DNA from: Ruminococcus albus 7 = DSM 20455
GTDB lineage: Bacteria; Bacillota; Clostridia; Oscillospirales; Ruminococcaceae
DNA length: 32,000 nucleotides
Assembly: GCF_000179635.2 (NCBI RefSeq)
Contig: NC_014825.1
Span: 320,647 to 352,646, forward strand
Direction of reading: 5' to 3'
The notes under the pieces were generated by a model that was not told the origin of the DNA, ran no database searches, and was given only the letters and a program-made list of their open reading frames with translations. The position numbers and the translations under genes were made by a program. Shown here one piece after another: positions 2 through 18,271 of the stretch. The number at the start of each line of letters is the position of its first letter. Positions within the stretch are counted from its first letter, which is position 1.

Positions 2-3000
2 TCACAGGCAGCAGATACAGCTTCGTCAGCTGCACCGTCGGGTAACAAGGACACTGATAGTGATACCACAGGAGATGAAACAACGTCCGACAGTGAGACT
101 ACCGACAGCGAAACGACAGACGATGAAAACGGTTTGAATGTTATAGACCTATCAGGTGAAGGCACCATAGCTGACAACATAAGACTGACTTCCCTTTCCG
201 CTGTTGAAAGAGGTGCATTCAGAGAAACACCTTCAACAAGGATAAACGTAGGTACCTCAGCCAAGGCAAGAAAATGGTCCGATAAAAAGAAAGAGGAAAA
301 GAAAAAGCTGACACTGATGGTATACATGGTCGGTTCTGACCTGGAAAGCAAACAGGCGCAGAAAGCCGCTACCATAGATATCGGTGAGATGATATACAGC
401 GGTCTTGATGACAAGGATGTAAACCTTGTGATATACTGCGGCGGTGCACAGACATGGTGGATACCCGGATATCCGGCAGGCAAGAATGCTTATATAGAGT
501 ACAAGTCCAAGGACTCCGATATACAGGGCGACAACGGTGCAGGTATAAATATCTATGAGACAGATAAAAAGAATATGGGCAAGGCTGATACCTTCGGCGC
601 ATTCCTCAAAGATGTTCCCGAGAAATATCCTGCAGATGACTATGCACTGATATGCTGGGACCACGGCGGCGGACCGGTGCTTGGCTACGGCAGCGACGAA
701 CTGAACGTTGACAGCAAGACGAAACTTGGTGACAGCCTTACCATAGCTGAGATGAAGGACGCACTTGACAAATCCGATTTCAAGAAAAACAAGCTGAAAT
801 TCGTGGGCTTTGATGCCTGTGTAATGTCATCGATCGAGATAGCTGACCTCTGGCAGGACTATGCTGAATACCTTGTGGCTTCTGCAGATTCCGAACCTGG
901 CTGCGGCTGGAACTATGAGTTCCTCAAGGATGTAAAGGGCGATACCGATACCACCAAGATATGCAAGGGCATAATAAAGACCTACTTCGATTATCTTTCC
1001 AAGATCAGTTCAAGCTGCTATATCTCCGATGCCACCCTCGCAGCCTTTGACCTTTCAAAGACTGACAGCGTAAAGGAAGCTGTCGGCGGTGTATGCAAGG
1101 CAATGAACGATGACCTGAAGAACGGTGACAAGAAGTCATACGAGAAGTTCCTTGACGGTGTACACAGCTACGCAAGCTTTGACCTGGCTGACCTGGGTAC
1201 TATGGTAACTTCCCTTTCGGGCTCTTATGCTGATGAAACAAAGGAGCTGAAAAGTGCCATAAACGATATGGTGATAGACGGCACTACCACTATCAGCAAC
1301 ACCTGCGGAATGTCAGTATATTTCCCGCTTTCAAACAGCACCGCAGATCTGGAGACCAGCCTTATAATACTGAAGATCCTGGGCGGCGGCGACTACATAA
1401 AGAACGATCCGCTCAACTCAGATTACCATGCACTGATGAGTACTCTGCTGAGCAATACTGATGTAGATGTGGGAACACCTTCATCAAAGCCAGACAGCAG
1501 TTCCTCAAAGAAGGATGAAAAATCATCCTCAAAGGCTGAGTCAAGCTCCTCAAAGAAGGACGAAAAATCATCCTCAAAGGCTGAGTCAAGCTCCTCAAAG
1601 AAGGACGAAAAATCATCTTCAAAGGCTGAGTCAAGCTCCTCAAAGAAGGACGAAAAATCATCCTCAAAGGCTGAGTCAAGTTCCTCAAAGAAGGATGAAA
1701 AGTCGTCCTCAAAGGCTGAGTCAAGTTCCTCAAAGAAGGATGAAAGCTCATCAAAGCCCGATAACAACGGAAACTCATCTGCATCGGCATCCGCACTCGA
1801 TAAGCTGGATCTGACAGTGGTTGAAAAGGGTGCAAAGTCCTCCGATAAGGAATTCAAGGACGACGGCTGTGCCTACTCAAAACTGCCCAAGGAAGAACTT
1901 GCCAATATCCGCGGCGTTTACTACACAGTACTCAAAAACGTGTCCATGGACGAAAAGAAAAAGAGCTGGGCACCTTATGTACTTTATATACCTGCCGAGG
2001 TGGATAACAAAGGCATAGCAAAAATGGATCTCGACCCGACCATCATCGGCGTTGTTACCGATAAGGATGCAGAGCCTAATATCTGTCTTACCAAGTATCT
2101 GGGTGACGGAAATTACCGTTCATCCGGTACACTCAGTTCTACCCGTGATCTTGCCGATGAGTATCTCAGAGTAAATATACAGTCTCACGTTGACGAAAAA
2201 GGCAATTCAGCTATCACAGGCGTTACCTCAAATCAGAACACAGACAGCGGCGTACCTATAGCTTCCAAGGACGATATCGACCTTAACGAGTGGCTGTCAT
2301 TCAGTTCACCTGTCACAGGCTATGCACCCGATCCCAAGAACCCCCGCAAGCATTTCAGCGAGGGTACTGCCGATACGCTCGGCGCTGCATTCAGCCTTCT
2401 TGGCGATAACTTCGATGTCAAAGCCTGCAAGCCCTCTGATATACCGGGCGAATACGCAATACAGATGAGCGTGTTCACCATCGACGGCAAAGAGTACTGC
2501 AGCAACATCGGCAGCTGGAACATAAAGGACGGAAACACTGAAAAGCTGAAAGAAGCAAAGGTGGATAAGGGCGTACTTAAATTTGCCGTACACGATGACT
2601 ACGCTGAACTTGTAAAGTTCGAGAAATCAGGAAAGGAGGAGCCCAAAAAGCTCACCGTTCCCGACAAGTTTGAAGGCAAGAAGGTAACAACTGTCCGCGA
2701 CGGTGCGTTCTCAGGCACAAGCCCCGAGGAGATAGTATTCCCCGACAGCGTTGAGTACATAGGCTATCTTTCTTCGGGTTCTTCCGCAACAAAGAAAGTA
2801 ACTCTCCCCAAAAAGCTCAAGAGCATACCCGATGAGATGTTCAGCTATTATACTGAACTTGAAAGTATCGAGATACCGTCCACAGTAGAGAGCATCGGCG
2901 CTTTCGCTTTTGAAAACTCAGGTCTGAAGGAAATAACTATACCAAAGGGCGTAACCTATATCGGTGACGGTGCATTCAAGGAGTGCGGTTCGCTCGACAA

Positions 3001-3532
3001 GATAACCATTGAAAGCGGCTCCAAGAACTACATCGCAGAGGATAATGTTCTCTACACCGCAGGCAAGAAAAAGCTGCTGGCATTTACAGGACGTAAACAC
3101 AAGGAATTCACTGTACCCGAGGGCGTCACCGAGATAAACAGATATGCCTTTGCAGGCAGCTTTGAACAGGGGCTGTCCTTCGGAAATGTCAGCGGAGATT
3201 CTGACGGTCTTACAAAGATCAGTTTCCCCAAGACCCTTGTAAAGATAGGTGACTTTGCTTTTGAAGGCTGCACAGGCTTCAGCGAGATCATTCTCCCCGA
3301 CAGCCTTGAATACCTGGGTACAGGCGCATTCGGTCATGCTTTCATACAGTCATCGGAGACCGAACTGGCTGTGCTGAAACTTGGTCCCAATTTAAAGAGG
3401 ATACGTTCTTTTGCAATCTCGGGCTACAAGATCAAAAAGTTAGAGGTAGACAAAAAGAACACCTGCTTCAGGACCGACGGCAAGAAACTTACAAGTATCG
3501 ACGGATCGGTGGAAATAAAGCTCACCAAATAA
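2..3532 (+). CDS. Secreted/surface multidomain protein (5' end outside window): clostripain-like peptidase C11 domain, Ser/Lys-rich tandem-repeat linker, and C-terminal BspA-type leucine-rich repeats
   Basis: Frame 2 is open from base 2. The low-complexity stretch SQAADTASS...TDSETTDDENG precedes the TTG at 134 used by the ORF track, so the true start is upstream of the window. C11 hallmarks are present: MVYMVGSDLES, ICWDHGGGP (catalytic His) and FVGFDACVMSS (catalytic Cys). The last ~450 aa consist of repeated 'I.IP..V..IG..AF..C..L..I' units typical of LRR_5/BspA repeats. Confidence 0.85.
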   Translation, partial: SQAADTASSAAPSGNKDTDSDTTGDETTSDSETTDSETTDDENGLNVIDLSGEGTIADNIRLTSLSAVERGAFRETPSTRINVGTSAKARKWSDKKKEEKKKLTLMVYMVGSDLESKQAQKAATIDIGEMIYSGLDDKDVNLVIYCGGAQTWWIPGYPAGKNAYIEYKSKDSDIQGDNGAGINIYETDKKNMGKADTFGAFLKDVPEKYPADDYALICWDHGGGPVLGYGSDELNVDSKTKLGDSLTIAEMKDALDKSDFKKNKLKFVGFDACVMSSIEIADLWQDYAEYLVASADSEPGCGWNYEFLKDVKGDTDTTKICKGIIKTYFDYLSKISSSCYISDATLAAFDLSKTDSVKEAVGGVCKAMNDDLKNGDKKSYEKFLDGVHSYASFDLADLGTMVTSLSGSYADETKELKSAINDMVIDGTTTISNTCGMSVYFPLSNSTADLETSLIILKILGGGDYIKNDPLNSDYHALMSTLLSNTDVDVGTPSSKPDSSSSKKDEKSSSKAESSSSKKDEKSSSKAESSSSKKDEKSSSKAESSSSKKDEKSSSKAESSSSKKDEKSSSKAESSSSKKDESSSKPDNNGNSSASASALDKLDLTVVEKGAKSSDKEFKDDGCAYSKLPKEELANIRGVYYTVLKNVSMDEKKKSWAPYVLYIPAEVDNKGIAKMDLDPTIIGVVTDKDAEPNICLTKYLGDGNYRSSGTLSSTRDLADEYLRVNIQSHVDEKGNSAITGVTSNQNTDSGVPIASKDDIDLNEWLSFSSPVTGYAPDPKNPRKHFSEGTADTLGAAFSLLGDNFDVKACKPSDIPGEYAIQMSVFTIDGKEYCSNIGSWNIKDGNTEKLKEAKVDKGVLKFAVHDDYAELVKFEKSGKEEPKKLTVPDKFEGKKVTTVRDGAFSGTSPEEIVFPDSVEYIGYLSSGSSATKKVTLPKKLKSIPDEMFSYYTELESIEIPSTVESIGAFAFENSGLKEITIPKGVTYIGDGAFKECGSLDKITIESGSKNYIAEDNVLYTAGKKKLLAFTGRKHKEFTVPEGVTEINRYAFAGSFEQGLSFGNVSGDSDGLTKISFPKTLVKIGDFAFEGCTGFSEIILPDSLEYLGTGAFGHAFIQSSETELAVLKLGPNLKRIRSFAISGYKIKKLEVDKKNTCFRTDGKKLTSIDGSVEIKLTK
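1499..1756 (+). repeat. In-frame 45-nt tandem repeat, 5 full copies plus a partial copy, encoding (SSSKKDEKSSSKAES)n
   Basis: Units start at 1499, 1544, 1589, 1634 and 1679, with a partial unit from 1724. Copies differ only at a few synonymous positions (gat/gac, agc/agt, tcc/tct, aaa/aag). The repeat explains the three spurious alternative-frame ORFs at 1413-1857. Confidence 0.95.
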
Positions 3533-5055: not shown

Positions 5056-5093
5056 GTGCGCTCACGGTCTTTCCGCGGGCGCACATTTTGTTT
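5056..5093 (+). terminator. Rho-independent terminator after the TrpB-like gene
   Basis: GTGCGC (5056-5061) pairs with GCGCAC (5079-5084). An inner CGG/CCG helix has a 5-nt loop. The hairpin is followed by aTTTTgTTT. Confidence 0.7.
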
Positions 5094-5103
5094 AATCAGC
5101 CGA

Positions 5104-5132
5104 TTGAAAATCATATAAAAATCGCGTATAAT
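5104..5132 (+). promoter_or_regulatory. Sigma-A type promoter for the MATE-like gene
   Basis: TTGAAA (5104-5109), 17-nt spacer, TATAAT (5127-5132). Confidence 0.6.
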
Positions 5133-5165
5133 GATAATTGTGATTTTTCAGAGAGCGGTGATATA

Positions 5166-5861
5166 ATGTCAAAGAGAACAATGACGGAGGGTACTCCGTG
5201 GAAACATATAGTCAGCTTTGCACTTCCTGTGCTGGCAGGATCTCTTCTTCAGCAGCTTTACAATACTGCAGATTCTGTCATAGTCGGCAGGAACGCTGGA
5301 CAATCGGCGCTATCGGGCGTGGGAACTACGGGTACATTCACTTTCCTGTTCCTCGCCATAGCCATAGGCTTTTCATCGGGCAACAGCGTGGTGATAGCCC
5401 AGCACTACGGTGCAGGCAAACCCGAACGTGTCAGACAGGGCGCACGTCAGACTACACTCATATCCGTTGGCATTACCATTTTGATAGCCGCTGCGATAAT
5501 GCTCACAGCCCCGAAGATAATAGACCTTTTTGCCCTGAATCATGCCGCCGCAGATTATTGCATACAACATCTGCGAACAATTGCGATGGTAAATTTGGTA
5601 CTGTCGGTATACATACCGCTCTTCGGCGTATTCCAGGGCACAAACCACAGCACCGTTCCCACTATTGTGGCTACCTGCGCACTAACTGTACGAGTTATAG
5701 TCACCTACATTTTCAGATACAGTGACTTTTTCGGATACACCATAATATGGTGGAACGGTCTTTTCGGCTTCGGAACAGGCTGCACCATAACATGGTCATA
5801 CTACCTCAGCGGCAAGTGGCTTGATCACAAGTCTGCCTTCACTGAAAAAGACAGCATCTGA
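5166..5861 (+). CDS. MATE family efflux transporter, about half normal length (possible in-frame internal deletion or pseudogene)
   Basis: The MATE N-terminus is present (TEGTPWKHIVSFALPVLAGSLLQQLYNTADSVIVGR...AQHYGAGKPERV). The typical MATE C-terminus is also present (IIWWNGLFGFG...WSYYLSGKW). The protein has only ~231 aa, against ~450 aa and 12 TM helices for the family. The ATG at 5166 is preferred over the track's TTG at 5088, because 5088 lies upstream of the predicted promoter. Confidence 0.7.
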   Translation: MSKRTMTEGTPWKHIVSFALPVLAGSLLQQLYNTADSVIVGRNAGQSALSGVGTTGTFTFLFLAIAIGFSSGNSVVIAQHYGAGKPERVRQGARQTTLISVGITILIAAAIMLTAPKIIDLFALNHAAADYCIQHLRTIAMVNLVLSVYIPLFGVFQGTNHSTVPTIVATCALTVRVIVTYIFRYSDFFGYTIIWWNGLFGFGTGCTITWSYYLSGKWLDHKSAFTEKDSI

Positions 5862-6039: not shown

Positions 6040-6588
6040 ATGAATATAAGACTTATAAATATCAAACATGACACCACCGACATTGATAAGATCATGCGGC
6101 TGTATAATACCGCATTTCCGTCGGATGAACGCGCACCTTTCGGGATACTTGTAAAAGGTGCCGCAAAGCCAAACGTTAATTTTTTCAGCTGTCTTGACGG
6201 TGATACCTGGATAGGATTTATCTATACCGTCAACTACCGTGATCTCAGCTATGTGTTCTATTTTGCCGTGGATGATGCTGTGCGCGGCAAGGGGTACGGC
6301 ACTGCCATACTGAAGGCGGCTCAGAAAAAGTACAGCGGCAGAAAGCTGTTCCTGGCAATAGAAGAAGTCGATAAAAAATACAAAAACTACAGTCAGCGCG
6401 TAAACAGACTTCGTTTTTACGAGCGTGCAGGATTTGTGCGTACAGGTCAGAAGATGCAGGAAGCAAAGGTCATATACGACCTGATGAGTACAGGCGGCAG
6501 GATACAAAACGCTGAATACCGAAAACTCATGAGATCATTTGCAGGACTGCGTATGCTGCTGTTCACTGTTAAAATACTGAATGACTGA
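6040..6588 (+). CDS. GNAT family N-acetyltransferase
   Basis: 182 aa. The acetyl-CoA binding motif A is FAVDDAVRGKGYGTAILKAAQ (R-x-x-G-x-G). RBS AGGTGA lies 7 nt upstream of the ATG. Confidence 0.85.
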   Translation: MNIRLINIKHDTTDIDKIMRLYNTAFPSDERAPFGILVKGAAKPNVNFFSCLDGDTWIGFIYTVNYRDLSYVFYFAVDDAVRGKGYGTAILKAAQKKYSGRKLFLAIEEVDKKYKNYSQRVNRLRFYERAGFVRTGQKMQEAKVIYDLMSTGGRIQNAEYRKLMRSFAGLRMLLFTVKILND

Positions 6589-6597
6589 TATAATAAC

Positions 6598-6637
6598 AAG
6601 ACCTCCGCAGTAAGATGATACCGCAGGAGGTCTTTTA
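6598..6637 (+). terminator. Rho-independent terminator after the GNAT gene
   Basis: AAGACCTCCGC pairs with GC(a)GGAGGTCTT, running into TTTT. Confidence 0.75.
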
Positions 6638-6840
6638 ATGACTATTAAATTCTTACATGGTTATCCCTTTAACACAACATTACAAAGTGCTATATAACAC
6701 GGTAATATCGTGTCGTAGTTATCATTCCCCCGCCTGCGGCGGGTGAGGATAACCGCCAAGTGTTTCAAGTTCCGATATAATACTAATTAATGTGGTGTGT
6801 CATCGGGATAATCTCGTATTAAGAGCAAGCCCGTATGCCT

Positions 6841-7236
6841 TTAGTATGTGTTATCAAATAGAATACATTTCGTGTTTTGTTTGAACCATTCCATATATTC
6901 TTTTTTATGGCGAATAAGGAATATAAATTCATCAATTTCAAAAACCATCTCGATTAATGAATTTTTTGCATATTCAGCCGCAACTGTATCTATGATATGA
7001 ACTTCATTTTTATCGTTTGAAATTATATACTGATTTCCTTCTAAAAAAATACCTTTATAACCGCTATCGTTGCAGATCATATCAGAATATTCCTGTATTT
7101 TTGTTTCATCATTCGCCTTTATAAATCCAACAATGATATCAACATCATCAATATCACCTACTTCAGAAAATAAATAATCCTCAAACATATTTATTGTCAT
7201 ACGATCATATTTTTTCATTATATTTTCAATCGTCAT
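6841..7236 (-). CDS. Hypothetical small acidic protein (131 aa), the passenger gene of the cassette
   Basis: The ATG at 7236 is preceded by AGGTGA (7241-7246) with 4-nt spacing. The track's longer start at 7299 lies only ~4 nt downstream of the predicted transcription start and has no RBS. The ORF is visibly AT-rich compared with its neighbours. No recognisable catalytic or DNA-binding motifs, no TM segment and no signal peptide. Confidence 0.65.
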   Translation of the reverse strand: MTIENIMKKYDRMTINMFEDYLFSEVGDIDDVDIIVGFIKANDETKIQEYSDMICNDSGYKGIFLEGNQYIISNDKNEVHIIDTVAAEYAKNSLIEMVFEIDEFIFLIRHKKEYMEWFKQNTKCILFDNTY

Positions 7237-7309
7237 AATATCACCTATTTTATGGAATTTTGCACGGAAAGACAGTCCAGACTTGATCAAAGTCATCATA
7301 AATTAATCT

Positions 7310-7338
7310 AATATACGTTTCTCCTTTTACAAATTCAA
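7310..7338 (-). promoter_or_regulatory. Sigma-A type promoter inside the cassette, driving the passenger ORF
   Basis: Minus strand: TTGAAT (7338-7333), 17-nt spacer, TATATT (7315-7310). Confidence 0.55.
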
Positions 7339-7554
7339 CCGTCGTAAGCTGGGAAACAGTGCGTATTTAAGGCTTTTGGCTGCTTTGGTGCAGTGATCTT
7401 ACTTGTGGTGTGTTAAGGGGATAACCATAAATTCTTATGATACTTTTATAACTGACCCTCATGGAAGAATGAATGAAGAGCATCGTAGATGTAATGTCTT
7501 ACATAGCCAAAACGTTGTGTCTTTCCCGATGAAACCGTGATCACCTTCGGGTTC

Positions 7555-8823
7555 TTACTTTTTCAGGTACTTGTCAAGTATGCCTGTATAATCAAATGTG
7601 CTGAAATAATCTGCAGGGGTCTCGGCACGTCTTATCATCTGTACATCGCCGTTCTCCTTCAGCAGAAGCTCAGCGGAGCGAAGTCTGCCGTTGTAGTTGT
7701 ATCCCATGGAGAAGCCGTGTGCACCAGCATCGTGTATAACGAGGATATCGCCTATCTCCAGCTCGGGGAGCATTCTGTCGATAGCGAACTTATCATTGTT
7801 CTCGCAAAGGCTGCCTGTAACATCGTACTTGTGATCACAAGGCTTGTCCTCCTTGCCGAGAACTGTGATATGGTGGTATGCACCGTACATAGCAGGACGC
7901 ATCAGGTTGCAGGCACAAGCATCAACACCTGCATACTCCTTGTAGGTGTGCTTGAAGTGCTTTACAGTTGTTACCAGATGACCGTAGGGAGCAAGCATAT
8001 ATCTTCCGAGCTCGGTGAATATAGCAACATCGCCAAGACCTGCAGGAACAAGTATCTCATCGAATGCCTTGTGAACGCCCTCACCGATAGCAAAGATATC
8101 GTTCTGAGGCTTGTCGGGCTCATAAGCAATACCAACACCGCCTGAGAGATTTATGAACTTGAACTCGATGCCCACCTTCTCCTTGATCTCAACAGCCAGC
8201 TCAAAAAGTATACGCGCAAGCTTGGGATAATACTCATTGGTAACAGTATTAGAAGCCAGGAAAGCGTGTATACCGAAGTATTTTGCACCCTTCTCCTTAA
8301 GTATCCTGAAGCCCTCGATTATCTGCTCGTGTGTGAAACCGTACTTTGCGTCACCGGGGTTGTCCATTATCTTAGTGGATATGGAGAAAGTTCCGCCGGG
8401 GTTGTAACGGCAGCAGATAGTTTCGGGTATGCCGCAGAGCTTATCAAGGAAATCAATGTGGGTGAAATCATCGAGATTGATGTAAGCGCCCATTTCCTTA
8501 GCCTTAACATACTCCTCAGCAGGAGTAACGTTTGACGAGAACATGATATCCTCGCCCTTGAAACCGCAGCACTCGCTGAGCATCAGTTCTGTAAGGGATG
8601 AACAGTCAACACCGCAGCCCTCCTCCTTCAGTATCTGAAGTATGTATGGATTAGGAGTAGCCTTTACAGCGAAGAACTCCTTATAGCCCTTGTTCCAGCT
8701 GAATGCCTTGTAAAGATTGCGTGCATTCTCGCGGATGCCTTTCTCGTCATAGATATGGAAGGGAGTGGGGTAAGACTTGATTATCTCCTCAGCCTTCTCC
8801 TTGGTTATAAAAGGTTTTTTCAT
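7555..8823 (-). CDS. lysA: Type III PLP-dependent decarboxylase, diaminopimelate decarboxylase-like
   Basis: 422 aa. The Orn/DAP/Arg decarboxylase family 2 signature is FFAVKATPNP (PLP lysine), together with INLSGGVGI and the CENNDKF substrate loop. RBS AAGGAAG. Substrate assignment (DAP versus a related diamine) cannot be made from sequence by eye. Confidence 0.8.
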   Translation of the reverse strand: MKKPFITKEKAEEIIKSYPTPFHIYDEKGIRENARNLYKAFSWNKGYKEFFAVKATPNPYILQILKEEGCGVDCSSLTELMLSECCGFKGEDIMFSSNVTPAEEYVKAKEMGAYINLDDFTHIDFLDKLCGIPETICCRYNPGGTFSISTKIMDNPGDAKYGFTHEQIIEGFRILKEKGAKYFGIHAFLASNTVTNEYYPKLARILFELAVEIKEKVGIEFKFINLSGGVGIAYEPDKPQNDIFAIGEGVHKAFDEILVPAGLGDVAIFTELGRYMLAPYGHLVTTVKHFKHTYKEYAGVDACACNLMRPAMYGAYHHITVLGKEDKPCDHKYDVTGSLCENNDKFAIDRMLPELEIGDILVIHDAGAHGFSMGYNYNGRLRSAELLLKENGDVQMIRRAETPADYFSTFDYTGILDKYLKK

Positions 8824-17907: not shown

Positions 17908-17961
17908 GCCGTCATGACTCAGCATATTAAACTTTCCGCCTGAAATCAAGCTATTCTTTTA

Positions 17962-18122
17962 CATGGTTATCCCTTTAACACACCATTACAAAGTGCTATA
18001 TAACAATGGATCATCGTGCTGATGTTATCCTTCCCCCGTCTGCGGCCGGGAAAGGATAACCGCCGAGAATTTCCGGTTCTGATATTACACCAAATTAATT
18101 GGTGCATAAACGGGACAATCAG
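17962..18122. mobile_element. 161-bp MITE, a stand-alone copy of the element seen at 6656-6815
   Basis: The first 44 nt are 43/44 identical to 6656-6699, and similarity continues to the end. The imperfect terminal inverted repeats are CATGGTTATCCCTTTAACACACCATT and AATTGGTGCATAAACGGGACAATCAG. The perfect 9-bp direct repeat ATTCTTTTA flanks it at 17953-17961 and 18123-18131. No ORF. Confidence 0.8.
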
Positions 18123-18271
18123 ATTCTTTTATATTTTCAGGGCAAAAACCGGTCTGCAGTCCGCATGAAGCCCCGTGTGACATAGATCTTTTTCATTTTG
18201 ATTTCCTATTGCGTTTATGATCGTTGTTGTAAAGAGTTGACTATTCAGTAAGATACTTATGCCGTTATATA

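Follow-up and report, generated by a model that had tools for sequence, protein, structure and literature searches.

How does a small gene come to lie between two inverted-repeat ends and a pair of 9-bp direct repeats, with no transposase gene beside it? The question is raised by a stretch of DNA of 32,000 nucleotides (the window, in what follows) from Ruminococcus albus 7 = DSM 20455, contig NC_014825.1, positions 320,647 to 352,646 of the forward strand. Within it, a plasmid of this strain (352,646 bp) carries a 773-bp cassette at 6656-7428, between a gene for a GNAT protein and a gene for a decarboxylase. The GNAT protein, the product of the small open reading frame (ORF) of the cassette in its 152-aa call and the decarboxylase are identical to ADU24383.1, ADU24384.1 (Rumal_3961, annotated 'plasmid') and ADU24385.1, respectively. 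The explanation favoured here, with a probability of roughly 0.8, is that the cassette is a non-autonomous mobile insertion cassette (MIC) of an insertion sequence (IS) of the IS1595 family, built from a miniature inverted-repeat transposable element (MITE), captured DNA and an IS stump, and carrying an immunity module as its cargo.

The first part of the answer lies in the ends of the cassette. The left end, starting at 6656, reads CATGGTTATCCCTTTAACACAACA, while the right end at 7404-7428 reads ATGGTTATCCCCTTAACACACCACA as its reverse complement, and the arms 6657-6679 and 7406-7428 are complementary at 21 of 23 positions (91%). The 9-mer AAATTCTTA, which stands directly outside both ends (6647-6655 and 7429-7437), occurs three times in the window against 0.51 expected. 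Similarly, the 20-mer ATGGTTATCCCYTTAACACA, with three or fewer mismatches allowed, was matched three times in the window and not once in 100 shuffles. A further, internal end at 6791-6813 is identical to the distal end at 7404-7426 at 19 of 23 positions, and the 160-bp left unit is 80.6% identical, over 160 nt, to a solo copy at 17962-18122. An earlier sequence-only reading of this DNA had described the inverted ends, the 9-bp duplication, the internal third end and the homologous solo copy, and all four are borne out. It had not mentioned that the solo copy is itself flanked by a perfect 9-bp duplication, ATTCTTTTA.

The same reading had called the interior AT-rich and had described it as free of any transposase or recombinase gene. 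A windowed calculation agrees with the former point, as 6819-7323 has a GC content of 0.285 and the ORF one of 0.268, compared with 0.456 in the whole window, 0.444 in the GNAT gene and 0.473 in the decarboxylase gene; no other 505-bp stretch of the window is as low as 6819-7323. The captured AT-rich DNA between the MITE and the IS stump is about 505 bp long. As for the latter point, the only plausible gene is the 131-codon ORF (ORF131), which has no Pfam or NCBIfam match, and the transposase remnant amounts to 105 bp of a 3' end. The left part, 6656-6818, folds into a long hairpin (-51.1 kcal/mol, z = -4.96 by fold computation). Since Rfam gave no family across the whole window, the 160-bp unit is not a known RNA.

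The right-hand part of the cassette was traced to a longer element. Positions 7324-7428 are 98.1% identical to positions 1-105 of an IS at L052:2383-3404, that is, to the last 105 bp of that IS, and the junction between this stump and the captured DNA reads GAATTTGTAA followed directly by AAGGAGAAACG. The IS belongs to the results of a scan for the end pattern, which took one genome per species and returned no R. albus 7 record, the window's own matches included. Altogether, 57 stretches from 12 genomes were obtained, all of them from Ruminococcus (R. albus 8, AR67 and KH2T6, along with nine rumen or gut metagenome-assembled genomes (MAGs)). Many of these stretches stand at contig ends, as expected for a repeated element. 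Where two ends mark off 1,022 bp, the DNA between them has a single ORF of 291-306 aa (L052:2383-3404 and L038:3101-4122), and the 25-nt ends ATGGTTATCCCCTTAACACACCACA are found at both termini of this 1,022-bp IS. The sequence-only reading had recommended counting other copies and looking for a longer one that has a transposase gene inside such ends, and both are found. Intact or near-intact copies of the IS were seen in R. albus AR67, KH2T6 and one rumen MAG, and partial ones in R. albus 8.

The ORFs of the IS copies in L052 and L038 match PF12762 (E-values 4e-21 and 1e-21) as well as PF12760, and the L052 transposase scores 161 bits against NF033547, for which the cutoff is 75. By its predicted protein, the autonomous partner is an IS1595-family insertion sequence with a DDE transposase of the ISXO2/IS1595 type and an N-terminal zinc ribbon. 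The ends, which the sequence-only reading had not recognised as those of any named IS family, are placed in IS1595 by the transposase of this partner, and they may resemble the consensus of one of its subgroups. In addition, the IS (L038), the cassette and the MITEs have an end asymmetry in common: the left inverted repeat (IRL), beginning CATGG, lies by the transposase start, and the right inverted repeat (IRR), ending CCAT, directly abuts the duplication. The IRL of the MITE matches the promoter-proximal (transposase-start) end of the autonomous IS, and the two outer ends of the cassette are the IRL and the IRR of the 1,022-bp IS with the same asymmetry. The proposal that the left end of a MITE was paired with a more distal right end can therefore be refined, as what serves as the distal end is a 105-bp terminal stump of the IS that takes in the 3' end of the transposase gene.

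At least 15 members of the family lie between perfect 9-bp A/T-rich duplications, among them the L038 copy of the IS, the two cassettes, the solo MITE and over ten further MITEs. Related MITE subfamilies of 160-180 bp, again with 9-bp A/T-rich duplications, are present in other Ruminococcus genomes (12 genomes carry relatives). In their size, in an IRL identical to that of the IS, in the duplication and in the presence of many copies, the left 163 bp of the cassette and the 161-bp solo copy can both be classed as MITEs. IS1595-family elements are known for A/T-rich target duplications, usually of 8 bp and of 7-9 bp in one subgroup (PMC12561309), and the 9-bp duplications of this family stand at the upper edge of the range reported there. 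No literature report of an IS1595 element in R. albus was found, which is a weak negative because the literature coverage is incomplete. A stretch in L057 was considered as a second passenger cassette and rejected, being a 35-bp remnant with its own duplication beside an unrelated small gene. In this remnant (L057:7614-7666), 8 nt of IRL are fused to 27 nt of IRR between perfect 9-bp duplications ATTAACTTT; the remnant represents either a footprint or the product of an extreme internal deletion.

The features of the cassette and of the solo element are collected in Table 1.

Table 1. Coordinates of the cassette, its parts and the related solo MITE, as positions of the window.
Feature	Position	Strand	Remarks
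Left copy of the target-site duplication	6647-6655		AAATTCTTA, direct reading; the 9-mer is single in the empty-site allele L004:3080-3088
MITE of the IS1595 family, complete, 163 bp	6656-6818	+	Outer IRL-type end CATGGTTATCCC... closes the cassette on the left
Internal right end of the MITE, TGTGGTGTGTCATCGGGATAATC	6791-6815	+	Unused as a cassette terminus; matches the right end of the solo MITE; diverged
Spacer with the final 9 codons and stop of the ORF (KCILFDNTY*)	6819-6870	-	Missing from the module form in L079/L083
Passenger gene, 131 codons, Rumal_3961, WP_242843422.1	6841-7236	-	Product probably an orphan immunity protein against a polymorphic toxin
C-terminal domain of a polymorphic toxin, 3' fragment of 24 codons and stop (GETYIRLIYDDFDQVWTVFPCKIP*)	7250-7323	-	By translation; extends upstream in L079 and L084
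IS stump, 105 bp from the terminus of the autonomous element, with the transposase gene's 3' end and IRR (7404-7428)	7324-7428	-	Right terminus of the cassette
Right copy of the target-site duplication, AAATTCTTA	7429-7437		Direct reading
Solo 161-bp MITE of the same family	17962-18122	+	Duplication ATTCTTTTA at 17953-17961 and 18123-18131

Did these parts travel together? The alleles of the insertion site in the window (site 1) were collected from contigs encoding an identical GNAT protein, which gave ten alleles, and other sites were sought through a metagenome scan with the ORF. In the metagenome scaffold L004, the decarboxylase gene follows 183 bp past the GNAT gene and the DNA reads ...GACTATTAAATTCTTATGATAC..., with a single 9-mer and nothing in between; its left flank is identical to the window at 605 of 609 positions. 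The empty site that the sequence-only reading had asked for, with a single AAATTCTTA, is therefore present at L004:3080-3088. Every other site-1 allele holds the whole cassette. At a second site (L078:2810-3552), the cassette lies among unrelated neighbour genes with ATAAATAAT duplicated on both sides, and at a third, in L081, it has yet another unrelated flank, the contig stopping inside the MITE. When the copies from the three sites were aligned, both internal joints were identical, the differences being mainly small indels. The same junctions at three sites indicate that the cassette was assembled once and then transposed. Moreover, since two other loci have identical junctions, one of them with its own duplication, the 773-bp unit moved whole, in keeping with the earlier suggestion that about 610 bp of foreign DNA had moved within the element. 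To judge from these alignments, at least three genomic sites have received the cassette as a single unit.

A stepwise build-up in place, in which a MITE landed first at AAATTCTTA, the other 610 bp came by later recombination and the 773 bp were never mobile as a whole, is hardly credible in the light of these alleles. The MITE is structurally complete and could transpose alone. Nevertheless, the 12 sampled alleles of the locus are either empty or hold the whole cassette, with no MITE-only allele among them, and the duplicated 9-mer does not follow the inner MITE end. The identical cassette with identical junctions at two other loci speaks against it as well, and L078, with a 9-bp duplication of its own, contradicts it.

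Some variation among the copies was also noted. The inner MITE end has been lost in L003-type alleles and in L081 by a deletion between the imperfect repeats GATAACACA and GATGACACA. At site 1 (6600-6655) and at site 3 (L081:2730-2776), the cassette lies a few bases past the terminator-like hairpin of the upstream gene, which hints at a possible insertion preference for A/T-rich tracts behind terminators. In L068:3413-4568 (GCA_002363195.1, the locus of the window), two passenger copies of 138 and 145 aa stand in tandem. The joint between them, GATAGAATAAAATAATTTATG, is the native 3' flank seen in L083, so that a simple duplication of a one-copy cassette fails as an explanation.

The IS stump calls for another alternative, namely that the cassette is a decayed passenger IS, which once had both a transposase and a passenger gene between its ends, until an internal deletion removed the former. 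The stump on the right is indeed a genuine transposase-gene 3' end of 105 bp. The IS1595 family is said to have been noted by Siguier et al. in 2009 for its passenger-gene members, and members of this kind would suit such an origin. However, the left part of the cassette is a complete MITE with its inner end and, beyond the IRL, is only loosely IS-like. Further, no copy with both transposase and ORF was met in the 57 genome stretches or in the metagenome scan, and L084 has the joint of ORF and MITE in a toxin context with no IS remnant. Decay of a passenger IS is thus held to be improbable, and the union of a MITE with an IS stump is preferred.

The locus in L084 also bears on how this union may have come about. 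L084 and L085 represent 17 short contigs from public sequencing runs, whose 152-aa product is identical to that of the window. Between 7335 and 6784 these contigs agree with the window except for 4 mismatches at the upstream end; the agreement takes in the ORF with its odd 3' tail, the spacer and the inner MITE end. Upstream, they have toxin-domain sequence cut by an IS3-family element, and no IS1595 remnant. The IS3-family element, with HTH_28 and rve ORFs, occupies L084:62-1193, immediately before the progenitor-like module; AT-rich modules of this kind seem to be prone to insertions.

It is proposed that, in a toxin-immunity locus, a MITE would first have landed some 50 bp beyond the 3' end of the immunity gene. 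An illegitimate joint of GAATTTGTAA with AGGAGAAACG, at a TAA microhomology found in both parents, would then have linked the 3' part of the toxin gene to the IS, with the fusion point 105 bp inside a neighbouring IS copy. The outcome would be one IRL and one IRR, both facing outward. The MITE-first order of assembly is the simplest reading of the sequences at hand. Once formed, the cassette would be served by the transposase of a full-length 1,022-bp IS located elsewhere, which would bind both outer ends in trans, move all the DNA between them and make the 9-bp A/T-rich target duplication.

What, then, does the cassette carry? A copy of the ORF outside any element, 96-98% identical, is found in L079 and in R. 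albus SY3 (L083), where it starts 13 nt after the stop of a gene fragment ending in ...GETHIRLIYDDFDQVWTVFPCKIS. The cassette retains the final 24 codons of such a toxin fragment (7250-7323), with the same 13-nt gap before ORF131, and the homology of the window with L079 stops at 6871. A gene of the ORF131 family lies directly downstream of a toxin-domain gene in L079, L083, L082 and L084; the pairing is kept even in the distant pair of L082, at about 30% protein identity. A profile of the toxin domain found 49 Firmicutes proteins, several of which have a pre-toxin HINT domain, PF07591 (PT-HINT), just upstream. It is this position of PF07591 in the homologs that identifies the domain as a polymorphic-toxin C-terminal domain. 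Furthermore, a 71%-identical homolog of ORF131 lies in an array with SUKH/SMI1_KNR4, Imm33 and PoNi genes. From this gene order we infer that the cargo is an orphan module of toxin fragment and immunity gene, ORF131 being the likely cognate immunity protein. Such a cassette would give its host protection from the cognate toxin without carrying the toxin.

In L079:2666-3484 and L083:4877-5697, the non-transposon form of the module lies between direct repeats, 99 nt long, which correspond to the 5' end of a pyrophosphatase-like gene. These repeats suggest another route of insertion, possibly recombination of a circular intermediate.

ORF131 itself has a ribosome-binding site, AGGTGA, 5 nt upstream. 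The longer, 152-codon reading begins in the overlapping remnant of the toxin gene, and the RefSeq call is 131 aa. Its 13 close clusters are all from Ruminococcus, with about 31 representatives among 1.8 billion proteins, and a G-x4-GNQY motif is invariant in the family. Pfam and NCBIfam returned nothing above threshold for ORF131 and 18 family members. An AlphaFold2 model built from 18 sequences reached a predicted local distance difference test (pLDDT) score of 87.8, residues 124-131 falling below 50; a single-sequence model, with a pLDDT of 41, was discarded. A search of the PDB with the ORF131 model found no match with E < 0.1.

Is the ORF, then, a neutral hitchhiker in a mobile unit, or a gene whose function is unrelated to toxin immunity? 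The lack of a match to a known immunity family or fold would fit such an idea, and so would the homolog in L069, which comes after an Rce1-like membrane protease gene with no toxin fragment there. The ratio of nonsynonymous to synonymous substitution rates (dN/dS) exceeds 1 among near-identical copies, on very few changes, and together with the in-frame indels this could reflect relaxed constraint. Against distant homologs, however, dN/dS is 0.04-0.4, and ORF131 appears, from these comparisons, to be under purifying selection over longer distances. The ORF is also intact in all cassette copies, the tandem duplicate included, and both the pairing with the toxin domain in L082 and the homolog in the SUKH, Imm33 and PoNi array favour a role in immunity. 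On balance, a hitchhiker or an unrelated function is considered rather unlikely, and the immunity reading is retained.

The differences between the copies concentrate in the N-terminal third of the ORF (7140-7200, codons 12-35), with in-frame 9-bp and 27-bp indels in an acidic stretch. The copies of the window and of L001 are nearer to the non-cassette paralog (98%) than to other cassette copies (97%), which suggests gene conversion between paralogs. The chromosome of R. albus 7 (3,685,408 bp) also holds a passenger paralog, WP_242843396.1 (P0005), which is 92% identical and has a different C-terminus.

A number of points weigh against the explanation favoured here, some touching its mobility and others its cargo. 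The duplication in L081 cannot be read, as the contig end cuts the site. A perfect duplication flanks one of the four complete IS copies with two flanks, that in L038; the copy in L052 agrees at 7 of 9 positions, and those in L014 and L037 show none. Mobilisation in trans is deduced from the anatomy of the elements, and an intact IS in R. albus 7 is a candidate source of transposase only, the strain not being represented in the genome scan. No match was obtained in PLSDB with the IS and the cassette, or in viral contigs with the end pattern. The arrangement in L084 could be derived from the cassette instead of being ancestral. With regard to the cargo, the presumed immunity function is drawn from the gene neighbourhood of a protein that matches none of the known immunity families or folds, and the toxin searches yielded short proteins and fragments, some with PT-HINT, but nothing of full length. 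Lastly, the sequence-only reading had spoken of a lone 131-codon ORF with its own promoter: the ORF stands, but the promoter lacks support, the 6 promoter-like sites in 6500-7600 being not above the 5.6 of shuffled sequence. One candidate, TTGAAT-17-TATATT, would place a start at the joint of IS and cargo (7338-7310, minus strand).

A few neighbouring genes of the window deserve mention. Upstream of the GNAT gene, at 5088-5861, a MatE transporter gene has suffered an internal deletion that left a remnant of 231-257 aa; in L002, L003 and L080, MatE has 443-453 aa, with about 650 bp of extra DNA at that place. An ORF of 1,132 aa (134-3532) contains six to seven 45-bp tandem repeats at 1429-1788, and in related loci it has Peptidase_C11 and LRR_5 domains.

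How does the cassette compare with elements already described? The first MIC to be described was reportedly MIC231, which belongs to IS231 of Bacillus cereus. PMC4133298 cites the concept of the MIC. Like the MICs of the MIC231 type, the cassette has inverted ends of an IS, no transposase, one unrelated passenger, a duplication and a presumed mobilisation in trans. Those MICs, on the other hand, belong to IS4/IS231, whereas here the family is IS1595, the ends come from a MITE and an IS stump, and the cargo is of the toxin-immunity kind. The following marks of a MIC are found in the cassette: the inverted repeats of a known IS, the lack of a transposase gene, a passenger gene and movement as a unit. 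The passenger is unrelated to transposition, for ORF131 is also found outside elements, beside a toxin-domain gene. No literature report of a MIC carrying an immunity gene was found, although the literature coverage is incomplete and the negative correspondingly weak.

Another kinship is with the mosaic non-autonomous transposons formed from Tn3-derived miniature elements (TIME-COMP; PMC4133298). In both cases, a miniature element supplies an end, and adjoining DNA is mobilised without a transposase gene. TIME-COMP, however, belongs to the Tn3 family, uses two miniature elements and was captured experimentally, whereas the cassette has an IS stump for one end, and its mobility is deduced from insertion polymorphism. 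As regards the partner IS, ISApl4-like IS1595 elements (PMC12561309) resemble it in having a DDE transposase with a zinc ribbon, a length of about 1 kb, a single ORF, inverted repeats and A/T-rich 7-9-bp duplications. The cassette differs from IS1595 elements in its lack of a transposase and in duplications of 9 bp instead of the usual 8.

Orphan modules of toxin fragment and immunity gene from polymorphic toxins, and acquired islands of immunity genes, are said to have been described by Zhang et al. in 2012 and by Ross et al. in 2019. The cargo of the cassette is similar in that an intact immunity-like gene comes after a 3' toxin fragment, with no full toxin, and in that its relatives occur in arrays. 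The known orphan modules are fixed arrays or recombinase-associated islands, whereas the present one lies inside a transposable cassette of less than 800 bp. Overall, the cassette is probably a known kind of element, in which the new features are the assignment to IS1595, the chimeric build of MITE and IS stump, and the probable immunity-gene cargo.

Rarely have non-autonomous bacterial transposons been documented together with their autonomous partner, an empty site, more than one insertion site and a locus resembling the progenitor. As all four are present here, the cassette illustrates cleanly how a neighbouring gene can be made mobile by a MITE together with an IS stump. For genome annotation, the analysis names an IS and a MITE family that break many Ruminococcus assemblies, and it accounts for a gene without a function, Rumal_3961. 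If the passenger is an immunity gene, the cassette would be among the smallest known vehicles to spread resistance to interbacterial toxins, in the dense and competitive rumen. It is possible, and is put forward tentatively, that in rumen Ruminococcus the packaging of single orphan immunity genes by IS1595-family MITEs and IS stumps is routine, and that the resulting units of less than 1 kb hop between chromosomes and plasmids and spread through the population. Such units may serve as a minimal selectable defence against contact-dependent or secreted polymorphic toxins, with the repeated loss of the inner end locking the cargo to its vehicle.

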